Made by a program: the position numbers and the translations under genes. 64,000 bases of DNA from an uncultured Clostridiaceae bacterium (GTDB lineage: Bacteria; Bacillota; Limnochordia; Darwinibacteriales; Darwinibacteriaceae): contig CAZVDE010000004.1 of NCBI GenBank assembly GCA_964626065.1, positions 110 through 64,109 on the forward strand, in the 5' to 3' direction. The notes under the pieces are model-generated. The model saw nothing but the letters and a program-made list of their open reading frames with translations, was not told where the DNA came from and made no database searches. Positions 45,313-46,976 of the stretch are shown one piece after another (position 1 is the stretch's first letter; each line of letters begins with the position of its first letter).

Positions 45313-45615
45313 TTAATAAGTTAAGTTAAATAGGGGTGCATGCTGCTGAGCACCGTAGACATCCGTTTCTCCTAAAGCTCCGGAGGGCCGCGGCCGCACC
45401 ATGGTAATCTTGATTGCGTGCGCCGGAGCAAAATGAACGATGGAAAGCACCTGGCTCACATCAATTTTATATAATTCGGCGACCTTTTCCTTGGTCACGC
45501 TAGTGCGCACTTCATTATAGATCTCCTCATTGGGAAACATAAGATCAAAGGTCAATTCGTACGGCCCTGCGTTCTTACTGCGTACCACCAGCGCTACATC
45601 CTTAACGTATCTCAT
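45313..45615 (-). CDS. small conserved protein, DUF4387-like
   Basis: 100 aa, 4-nt overlap with the upstream gene. It reads like the partner of the DUF1446 (AtuA-like) family. This is a recollection of the family pairing, not a verified search. Confidence 0.5.
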   Translation of the reverse strand: MRYVKDVALVVRSKNAGPYELTFDLMFPNEEIYNEVRTSVTKEKVAELYKIDVSQVLSIVHFAPAHAIKITMVRPRPSGALGETDVYGAQQHAPLFNLTY

Positions 45616-46976
45616 AGACCACTCCTCCCCATTTTCATTGGAAATGTACTCTTCGGATCAGCAACTTGCATCAAATGATGCACATTGAATTGGTAAACCG
45701 CTCCTGCCGACACATCAGACGGTGAATACAAAAAGGCCAGGTTGCCTGCGGTGGATTTGCGGCCGGGGTAACCATAGTGAAGTAGAGTAGAGCGGGCAAA
45801 GCTGCAGATTGTGTCCGCAACCTCCTGTGTGGGGCCCACTGCCTCAATAACCAGGCCAAGTTCGTGACCTGCGACAGGGGTTGGTTCTAATTCACCCATC
45901 ACGCCGTTTTTGCCATAACAGTGTACGTGCAGGTGATAATCGCGCAGTTCTTGAAAATTATCCGCGACCCGTTCTTTAACCCCACAAACCACGTCATCAA
46001 TTTGGCTGATCATGATCGGATCACGCACACCGGCAATGCTGATGGTGCGATAACCAACGAGCTTGGCGCCCTCCAACTTAATATAGTAATTCTCCGTAGG
46101 TACAAAGGTCGTACCGGACACGCGCACCTTACCACCCTCCAACTGTTGGAAAACGGTGTTAGTCAAATCCAGACTGCCACCGGGCCCCGGCAGGATATAA
46201 GGGTTGCTCTTTTCATACAGAGTGTGGGCGGCAATGGACAGGCGCGTGCACTCTCGTTGCGGATTGGGAGCCTCCAGAATAAACGAGTCCTTTGTTAATG
46301 TCCCAAACAGGCAATCACTACCGCTGCCAGGATTAGCCGCAATCGCCGCACATTCTAAGATTTTGCCCAAATGCAGTGCTAGAGCTTGATCGTACCCTTT
46401 TAAGATGGGCAGTGCAGCAAATACGGTGGGATCATAGGCCCGGCCGGCCAAAACAATCTCCGCCCCCTGTTCCAGTGCCTCAATTATTGGTTCCGTACCC
46501 ATCTGGGCCACAATATGTTCGGCGGCGCGCACTTCGTTCTCCGTCAGTTCGCTCACCGGGCCTAGAGGCTGGACCTCTCCTTTTTTCAGCTTTTCAATAA
46601 CTAAATTAGGATCAATATCACTATAAATAACTGCCAATTGCGCGACGCGCCCCAGCTCTTGCAGTACCTCTTGTACGATCTCCAGATTCCATTCCACATG
46701 GGGTTTTGCACCCGATCCGCCTGCAGTGCCGATAATTAAAGGGATCTTGTGATCCAGGGCCGCTTCAATCAAATAGCGCAGATCACGTTTTACCGCTGAA
46801 CGCTGTGTGAAAGATTGTCCCGAGCCCAAGTAATAGGGCCCCGGATCGGTGGAGCCCGCATCAACTGCAATCACGTGAGGCCGGCGAGCCAAACCGGCCT
46901 GAAAAGAGGCCAGGGGAAAGCCGTAGCCCAAGATTGCGGTTGGCGATAAAATTCTTAGTTCGTTCAATTCCATCAT
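45612..46976 (-). CDS. DUF1446 / AtuA-like protein of unknown function
   Basis: 454 aa, clean frame, translationally coupled to neighbours on both sides. Confidence 0.55.
   Translation of the reverse strand: MMELNELRILSPTAILGYGFPLASFQAGLARRPHVIAVDAGSTDPGPYYLGSGQSFTQRSAVKRDLRYLIEAALDHKIPLIIGTAGGSGAKPHVEWNLEIVQEVLQELGRVAQLAVIYSDIDPNLVIEKLKKGEVQPLGPVSELTENEVRAAEHIVAQMGTEPIIEALEQGAEIVLAGRAYDPTVFAALPILKGYDQALALHLGKILECAAIAANPGSGSDCLFGTLTKDSFILEAPNPQRECTRLSIAAHTLYEKSNPYILPGPGGSLDLTNTVFQQLEGGKVRVSGTTFVPTENYYIKLEGAKLVGYRTISIAGVRDPIMISQIDDVVCGVKERVADNFQELRDYHLHVHCYGKNGVMGELEPTPVAGHELGLVIEAVGPTQEVADTICSFARSTLLHYGYPGRKSTAGNLAFLYSPSDVSAGAVYQFNVHHLMQVADPKSTFPMKMGRSGL

Follow-up and report, generated by a model that had tools for sequence, protein, structure and literature searches.

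In the methylaspartate pathway, glutamate is converted via (2S,3S)-3-methylaspartate, mesaconate and (S)-citramalate to acetate and pyruvate (Buckel 2021, PMC8473912). The final cleavage is carried out in Clostridium tetanomorphum by the classical citramalate lyase (EC 4.1.3.22), which is made up of CitD/CitE/CitF-like proteins with an acyl carrier protein. This classical enzyme operates through an acetyl-thioester on its acyl carrier protein, a mechanism reportedly described by Buckel and Bobi in 1976. Activated citramalyl or citryl intermediates are also cleaved, with release of a C2 unit, by citramalyl-CoA lyase (Ccl/CLYBL, HpcH family) and by ATP-citrate lyase, the latter using ATP to form an acyl phosphate.

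A further citramalate lyase, CmlAB, is represented in Enterobacteriaceae (PDB entries 9ERQ and 9EVF; ECs_0760/ECs_0759 of E. coli O157:H7 Sakai; Raoultella planticola Cml), and citramalyl-CoA lyase and ATP-citrate lyase are its functional analogues. CmlAB performs the same reaction as the classical enzyme at the same place in the pathway, but the proteins of the two systems are unrelated, and whereas the classical enzyme relies on a carrier-protein acetyl-thioester, free citramalate is the described substrate of CmlAB, whose crystals contain adenine nucleotides. The PDB titles read ‘Citramalate lyase - AMPPNP - citramalate complex’ (2025-10-22) and ‘Citramalate lyase - ADP - pyruvate complex’ (2025-10-08). 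According to a preprint (10.64898/2026.01.16.699985), the enzyme cleaves citramalate directly to pyruvate and acetate; growth of E. coli on mesaconate was plasmid-dependent, and isotope labelling was consistent with conversion of citramalate to these two products. The gene order in E. coli O157:H7 Sakai is glmS-glmL-glmE-mal-ECs_0760-ECs_0759-transporter-fumD-cobA, with ECs_0760 being 92% identical to chain A of 9ERQ.

The large subunit shares its Pfam family, PF07287, with the founding member AtuA from the acyclic terpene utilisation cluster of Pseudomonas, which is a distant relative from a different pathway context. The Atu pathway includes a step in which acetate is set free from a 3-hydroxy-3-alkyl acid, making related chemistry conceivable, and to our knowledge the reaction of AtuA itself has not been established. 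A DUF1446 gene downstream of mal, wrongly annotated as a methylaspartase, was pointed out in Enterobacteriaceae and Dictyoglomus by Kronen and Berg (2015, PMC4682846), who also noted that clostridial clusters do carry the classical citramalate lyase.

The gene pair and its relation to CmlAB

We analysed a 64,000-nucleotide stretch of DNA (the window) from an uncultured, spore-forming lineage of Bacillota. Two minus-strand open reading frames, put forward in a preliminary description as an unusual pair within a methylaspartate operon, were recovered at exactly the coordinates given there (Table 1), and their placement between glmE and the gene for methylaspartate ammonia-lyase was confirmed by matches of the flanking genes to TIGR01503 and TIGR01502. 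Pfam assigns the 454-aa protein to PF07287 (AtuA/DUF1446; E=1.4e-20, 74 bits, best stretch residues 63-213) and the 100-aa protein to PF14330 (DUF4387; E=1.6e-35), which bears out the earlier statement that neither is a classical pathway enzyme; NCBIfam holds a model for neither of them. An identification of the large subunit as a methylaspartase was rejected, since it matches PF07287 only and not MAAL_N/MAAL_C (enolase superfamily), the real Mal being encoded by the neighbouring gene.

Table 1. Features of the methylaspartate operon and its borders (window positions).
Feature	Position	Strand	Evidence or remark
hairpin with T-run, terminator-like, 3' end of spoIVB	50345-50375	minus	12-bp stem then T9
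glmS, glutamate mutase B12-binding subunit, first operon gene	49849-50259	minus	NF002612/TIGR01501 equivalog, E=1.6e-62
glmL (mutL), glutamate mutase accessory protein	48438-49844	minus	NF040745, E=1.1e-173; Pfam MutL
glmE, glutamate mutase catalytic subunit	46980-48437	minus	TIGR01503, E=3.6e-222
cmlA, predicted CmlAB-type citramalate lyase large subunit (AtuA/DUF1446)	45612-46976	minus	454 aa from first ATG
cmlB, predicted small subunit (DUF4387)	45313-45615	minus	100 aa
mal, 3-methylaspartate ammonia-lyase	44052-45299	minus	TIGR01502, E=2.3e-167; GenBank call on identical contig 415 aa
class I fumarase alpha-type subunit, presumed mesaconase alpha	43200-44042	minus	Pfam Fumerase, E=2.4e-116; NF004885
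294-aa protein, last operon gene	42315-43199	minus	no family match
spo0A	41548-42318	minus	family search

A search against PDB sequences matched the 454-aa protein to chain A of 9ERQ/9EVF (phmmer E=6.3e-155, residues 7-441 against 5-439), labelled ‘Acyclic terpene utilization AtuA family protein | Citramalate lyase, subunit A (cmlA)’, and the 100-aa protein to chain B of 9ERQ (phmmer E=1.3e-22), labelled ‘DUF4387 domain-containing protein | Citramalate lyase, subunit B (cmlB)’. Identity to 9ERQ is 54% over 435 aa for CmlA, a value that does not by itself fix substrate specificity, and 48-49% for CmlB. Out of 174 residues that are invariant in the window protein and 11 relatives, 155 (89%) are identical in chain A of 9ERQ, a count taken over all invariant positions, which bears on active-site conservation only indirectly. 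The shared residues include all glycine-rich and charged motifs, among them DAGS(T/S)DPGP, GTAGGSGA, GRAYDP, GKILECAAIAA, PGSGSDC, AAHTLYEKS and LPGPGG, and the predicted fold of the window protein is the same as that of the solved CmlA large subunit. The neighbouring enzymes show identities to the E. coli O157 cluster (GlmE 58%, Mal 51%, GlmS 54%) in the range of CmlA and CmlB, which speaks for orthology of the entire cluster.

Judging from sequence homology, the predicted fold, the surrounding genes and the lack of CitDEF at this locus, the two open reading frames very probably encode the CmlA and CmlB subunits of a CmlAB-type (S)-citramalate lyase, an enzyme that has only recently been characterised. 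They would supply the final reaction of what is otherwise an ordinary operon for glutamate fermentation. Cleavage of (S)-citramalate to pyruvate and acetate is known from the enterobacterial orthologue alone, through the PDB entry names and the preprint, and is a prediction for the window pair. The preliminary description had stated that the family pair has no established biochemical function, which is outdated, as substrate- and product-bound structures of the orthologous pair became public in October 2025. It had also offered three guesses at the activity, of which a CoA-independent lyase agrees with the names of 9ERQ/9EVF and with the preprint; a hydratase and an isomerase are unsupported, and we rejected both, given that the solved orthologue is a lyase holding substrate and product and that cmlAB lies beside complete mesaconase genes elsewhere. 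The pair does fall into a characterised family, so its claimed novelty fails, although that family is not an unrelated one, and the suggestion that operon position ties the pair to methylaspartate-pathway chemistry was borne out.

The stop codon of cmlA and the start of cmlB share a 4-nt ATGA overlap (45615-45612) with a GGAGG ribosome-binding site ahead of it, through which cmlB is translationally coupled to cmlA. Overlaps of this kind had been reported on each side of the genes, which holds for the cmlA/cmlB junction only, the outer junctions being short gaps. Upstream, the glmE stop codon (TAG, 46982-46980) lies 3 nt from the first ATG of the 454-aa frame at 46976; GenBank calls a 100%-identical protein (P0001) from a TTG at 46967, giving 451 aa and a gap of 12 nt, and this TTG is the probable true start of cmlA. 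Downstream, 13 nt separate the cmlB stop from a TTG at 45299 (‘MKI...’) that is preceded by an AAGGAG site and is most likely the start of mal, an in-frame GTG further upstream at 45308 being less likely.

The genes from glmS onwards (glmS, glmL, glmE, cmlA, cmlB, mal, fumarase alpha, 294-aa open reading frame, followed by spo0A) are co-directional and tightly packed, which makes a single operon the sensible reading. Ahead of them on the minus strand run xseA, ispA, OLE RNA, a 189-aa open reading frame, dxs, a tlyA-like gene, nadK, argR, recN and spoIVB, and the hairpin at the end of spoIVB probably separates that gene from the methylaspartate operon. A search with Rfam found no riboswitch or other RNA inside the operon.

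Elsewhere in the window, Rfam matches comprised the OLE RNA (58001-58656), a T-box leader (9962-10175) and a tRNA (1709-1779). spoIVB and spo0A are neighbours in a conserved Firmicute block, and in this clade the whole operon is inserted between them; its last gene, encoding the 294-aa protein, overlaps the start of spo0A by 4 nt.

Comparison of the locus with enterobacterial and other clusters

The enterobacterial CmlAB locus and the window share the same succession of an AtuA-type large and a DUF4387-type small subunit, alignable over their full lengths (54% and 48% identity), in a neighbourhood containing glmS-glmL-glmE, mal and a class I fumarase gene, and both loci lack CitDEF. They differ in gene order, cmlAB being placed after mal in E. 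coli and at most loci but between glmE and mal in the window, and in that the solved CmlAB comes from Enterobacteriaceae rather than from an uncultured spore-forming Bacillota lineage. Furthermore, the window encodes a split, alpha-type fumarase gene without its beta counterpart instead of the fused FumD of E. coli, and its cluster carries no CobA adenosyltransferase or transporter, having a P-loop/editing-domain protein (the 294-aa protein) instead. A CobA-type adenosyltransferase was found neither in the window nor in the retrieved loci.

Relatives were collected by scanning one genome per species with an alignment of CmlA, which returned at least 589 relatives, the best 80 of which were retrieved; Bacillota, Bacteroidota, Spirochaetota and Proteobacteria are represented among these 80, along with one actinobacterial MAG. 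Gene presence was scored by tblastn with the proteins of the window. At these 80 loci, the best-scoring of at least 589 relatives and phylogenetically non-independent, mal was detected in 58, glmE in 51, fumarase alpha in 45 and cmlB in 78, in every case directly after cmlA. Restricting the count to the 47 well-flanked loci (at least 6 kb upstream and at least 4 kb downstream of cmlA), cmlB follows cmlA directly in all 47, glmE and mal are both present in 37, the 294-aa protein in 32 and fumarase alpha in 28. The co-occurrence of DUF1446 with glm and mal genes that had been proposed as a check is thus positive, and the link between DUF1446 and mal, having been noted in 2015 (PMC4682846), is not new.

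The commonest arrangement is glmS-glmL-glmE-mal-cmlA-cmlB-(294-aa protein)-fumarase alpha(-beta). At glm-free loci, cmlAB is often paired with fumarase alpha and beta, a combination that looks like a mesaconate-utilisation module. Some Proteobacteria carry cmlAB at about 60% identity with no glm, mal or fumarase gene within 10 kb, in one case beside an amino-acid ABC transporter and an aldehyde dehydrogenase, and such contexts suggest that the subfamily may accept other substrates or draw on other sources of citramalate.

With the six Cit proteins of E. coli K-12 as queries, tblastn detected no homologue of CitC, CitD, CitE, CitF, CitX or CitG in the window (E<=1e-2) or at the 80 loci (E<=1e-5). 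Within the 64 kb searched, this fits a role of CmlAB as an unrelated substitute for the classical citramalate lyase in this operon.

Pathway, mechanism and competing readings

In the pathway that we propose, glutamate mutase (GlmS/GlmE, with GlmL) would convert glutamate to 3-methylaspartate, from which methylaspartase would remove ammonia to give mesaconate; a mesaconase of the class I fumarase type would then add water to yield (S)-citramalate, and CmlAB would split this into pyruvate and acetate with no need for the acyl-carrier-protein thioester machinery of the CitDEF-like enzyme. The mesaconase step is incomplete at this locus. Elsewhere the alpha gene is normally followed by a beta gene; here it stands without an adjoining one, and a search with a Petrimonas Fumerase_C protein gave no match to the beta subunit in the window or at the sister loci (L001-L008, L073).

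Cleavage of free citramalate would place a carbanion beside a carboxylate, a situation that the thioester avoids in the classical enzyme. The crystals contain an ATP analogue with the substrate and ADP with the product, from which we infer that the nucleotide takes part in catalysis. ATP may activate the C4 carboxylate as an acyl phosphate, standing in for the thioester and enabling a retro-aldol cleavage, after which the phosphate would either return to ADP or leave as acetyl phosphate. This acyl-phosphate role is our best guess, the alternative being a nucleotide that is purely structural or allosteric. The preprint names acetate as the product and raises a concern about acetate back-pressure, which favours a return of the phosphate or a non-chemical role of the nucleotide (10.64898/2026.01.16.699985).

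A pair with the CmlAB fold might nevertheless serve another physiological substrate, as a lyase on a different 3-hydroxy-3-alkyl dicarboxylate, comparable to AtuA in acyclic terpene breakdown. The Pfam family is named for the terpene-pathway protein, the match of the window protein to this family is only moderate (74 bits), and the roughly 60%-identical homologues mentioned above occur in contexts free of glm, mal and fumarase genes. Yet the context of the window pair, with glmSLE, mal and a fumarase gene, is that of the crystallised enterobacterial enzyme, its identity to that enzyme is as high as that of the flanking pathway enzymes, with motif conservation of 89%, and the locus has no other citramalate-cleaving enzyme, all of which makes a different substrate improbable. 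The gap in the mesaconase step invites another idea, that the pair replaces or complements the beta subunit as a hydratase partner, given that the sole fumarase gene in the operon and at its sister loci is of the alpha type, with no Fumerase_C gene present. We consider such a substitution extremely improbable: most other loci have cmlAB together with both alpha and beta genes, the orthologue of known structure bears the name of a lyase, its crystals contain citramalate or pyruvate, and its fold is unlike that of fumarase.

Database names could be taken to favour a non-enzymatic function, with the pair assisting or regulating methylaspartase or glutamate mutase, as RefSeq labels the E. coli O157 orthologues after methylaspartase and an acyl-CoA synthetase, and a relative (P0089) is named alike. 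The methylaspartase label, however, is without known basis (Kronen and Berg, PMC4682846), the 454-aa protein is unlike the MAAL domains, cmlAB is also present in the absence of mal or glm, and the structures hold substrate and product; we therefore give this reading hardly any credence. The assignment of the pair as CmlAB-type citramalate lyase is the one that we retain.

The 294-aa protein and implications for the pathway

The last gene of the operon encodes a conserved 294-aa protein. Its N-terminal part has a TsaE-like P-loop (Walker A motif GDAGAGKS), while its C-terminal domain, by fold search and motif order, resembles the editing domain of ThrRS/AlaRS (AlaX). No meaningful sequence match was obtained in Pfam, NCBIfam or the PDB (Pfam and PDB at E<=10), and databases list it as ‘alanine-tRNA synthetase second additional domain-containing protein’ or as TsaE. 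Its invariant motifs are arranged as in the editing site of E. coli ThrRS, with MAHSAED corresponding to RHSCAHLL, GFVVEF to GFYYD and CSGPRLH to CRGPH, and the H...D, GF and C..GP..H elements are kept. The editing-domain assignment draws only on the fold search and this motif order, and an hhalign comparison with the N-terminus of the single E. coli ThrRS sequence was not significant (probability 0.5%).

The distribution of the 294-aa protein follows that of glm and mal, not that of cmlAB. Among the well-flanked loci it occurs at 32 of 37 with glm and mal and at none of 10 without them (Fisher p=6e-7, uncorrected for phylogeny). Peptococcaceae clusters without cmlAB read glmS-glmL-glmE-(mal)-HGD-D-BcrAD-metallo-beta-lactamase-[294-aa protein]-rph-rdgB. 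In Desulfosporosinus the protein lies beside rph without glm, a layout shared by one further genome (L086), where genes for HGD-D, BcrAD and the alpha and beta subunits of fumarase lie upstream.

It is conceivable, if rather unlikely, that the 294-aa protein is dedicated to quality control in the methylaspartate pathway, for instance as a trans-editing enzyme that would remove the non-proteinogenic amino acid 3-methylaspartate from mischarged tRNA. Trans-editing of this sort has a precedent in the canavanyl-tRNA deacylase of canavanine degraders. A function as accessory ATPase for the B12 enzyme is an open alternative.

The gene pair, from an uncultured member of the Bacillota, is orthologous to an enzyme for which substrate- and product-bound structures are publicly available, and its function is not new; the more interesting leftovers are the 294-aa protein, the missing mesaconase beta subunit and the position of the operon between spoIVB and spo0A. 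The CmlAB label accounts for every methylaspartate step in this lineage except for the mesaconase beta subunit, which was not located. Pfam and NCBIfam still offer only DUF/AtuA labels for the pair, and RefSeq misnames ECs_0760 as ‘3-methylaspartate ammonia-lyase’ and ECs_0759 as ‘acyl-CoA synthetase’. The same annotation extends to hundreds of other genomes, among them many from Bacteroidota and Spirochaetota without a classical CitDEF-type lyase, and the carrier-protein-free, nucleotide-binding lyase is the common solution outside the classical clostridia. Should the 294-aa protein prove to be a pathway-specific factor, it would be a new component of a 60-year-old textbook pathway.

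The methylaspartate operon and its neighbour spo0A

The genes spoIVB and spo0A are normally neighbours in a conserved Firmicute block. In the window they are separated by the methylaspartate operon, an arrangement found likewise in L001-L008, L073 and L088. The operon's final gene runs into the start codon of spo0A (ATGA at 42318-42315), so spo0A may be co-transcribed or translationally coupled with this fermentation operon. The operon also carries a class I fumarase alpha-type gene, presumed to encode mesaconase alpha, and no gene for the beta subunit (Fumerase_C) was found in the operon, the whole 64-kb window or the sister loci (L001-L008, L073, L088). 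At most of the other cmlAB loci, beta directly follows alpha.

Features located in the window and in compared loci
Feature	Locus	Position	Strand	Rfam match
Methylaspartate operon insertion, ~8 kb, with spo0A	window	41548-50375	(-)	
Class I fumarase alpha-type (mesaconase) gene	window	43200-44042	(-)	
Conserved 294-aa protein, no family assignment	window	42315-43199	(-)	
OLE (ornate large extremophilic) RNA, full-length	window	58001-58656	(-)	RF01071, 461 bits, E=3.8e-132
189-aa ORF	window	57416-57985		
T-box leader	window	9962-10175	(-)	RF00230, 111.7 bits
991-aa ORF	window	7143-10118		
tRNA gene (one)	window	1709-1779	(-)	
glmS-glmL-glmE(-mal) clusters, Carboxydothermus and Desulfofalx	L083; L087	3482-10903; 1760-9972		
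CmlA/CmlB orthologues ECs_0760/ECs_0759, E. coli O157:H7 Sakai	L082	36933-38617		

RNA elements

The OLE RNA lies upstream of dxs, flanked by an ispA-like gene and the 189-aa ORF, which had no match in a Pfam search and is possibly a partner protein of this RNA. The T-box leader covers the annotated start of the 991-aa ORF, so the true start is probably further downstream.

cmlAB and glm genes in other contexts

The E. coli O157:H7 Sakai orthologues still bear other names in RefSeq, '3-methylaspartate ammonia-lyase' for that of CmlA and 'acyl-CoA synthetase' for that of CmlB, and neither family carries a citramalate-lyase label in Pfam or NCBIfam. The cmlAB pairs of six proteobacterial loci (L034, L045, L054, L056, L061, L062) show ~60% identity to those of the window, with glm, mal and fumarase genes all absent within 10 kb; in Hoeflea, genes for an amino-acid ABC transporter and for an aldehyde dehydrogenase lie beside cmlAB. 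The substrate of these pairs, or their source of citramalate, may differ. The Carboxydothermus and Desulfofalx clusters contain neither cmlAB nor the acyl-carrier-protein lyase genes CitDEF; there, the glm(-mal) genes precede those for an HGD-D-like protein, an activator ATPase of the BcrAD/BadFG type and a protein with a metallo-beta-lactamase fold. This arrangement may represent a different, undescribed route for processing mesaconate or methylaspartate.

A P-loop protein accompanying glm and mal

The 294-aa protein contains a Walker A motif (GDAGAGKS), and in its predicted fold a TsaE-like P-loop precedes an AlaX-like domain of the ThrRS/AlaRS-editing kind, in which the motifs H176/D180, GF203 and C250/H256 are invariant. 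Among the loci compared, it did not co-occur with cmlAB alone; it accompanies glm and mal in three distinct cluster architectures, in Bacillota, Bacteroidota/Spirochaetota and Peptococcaceae. One possibility is that it serves the methylaspartate pathway as a trans-editing or accessory factor.
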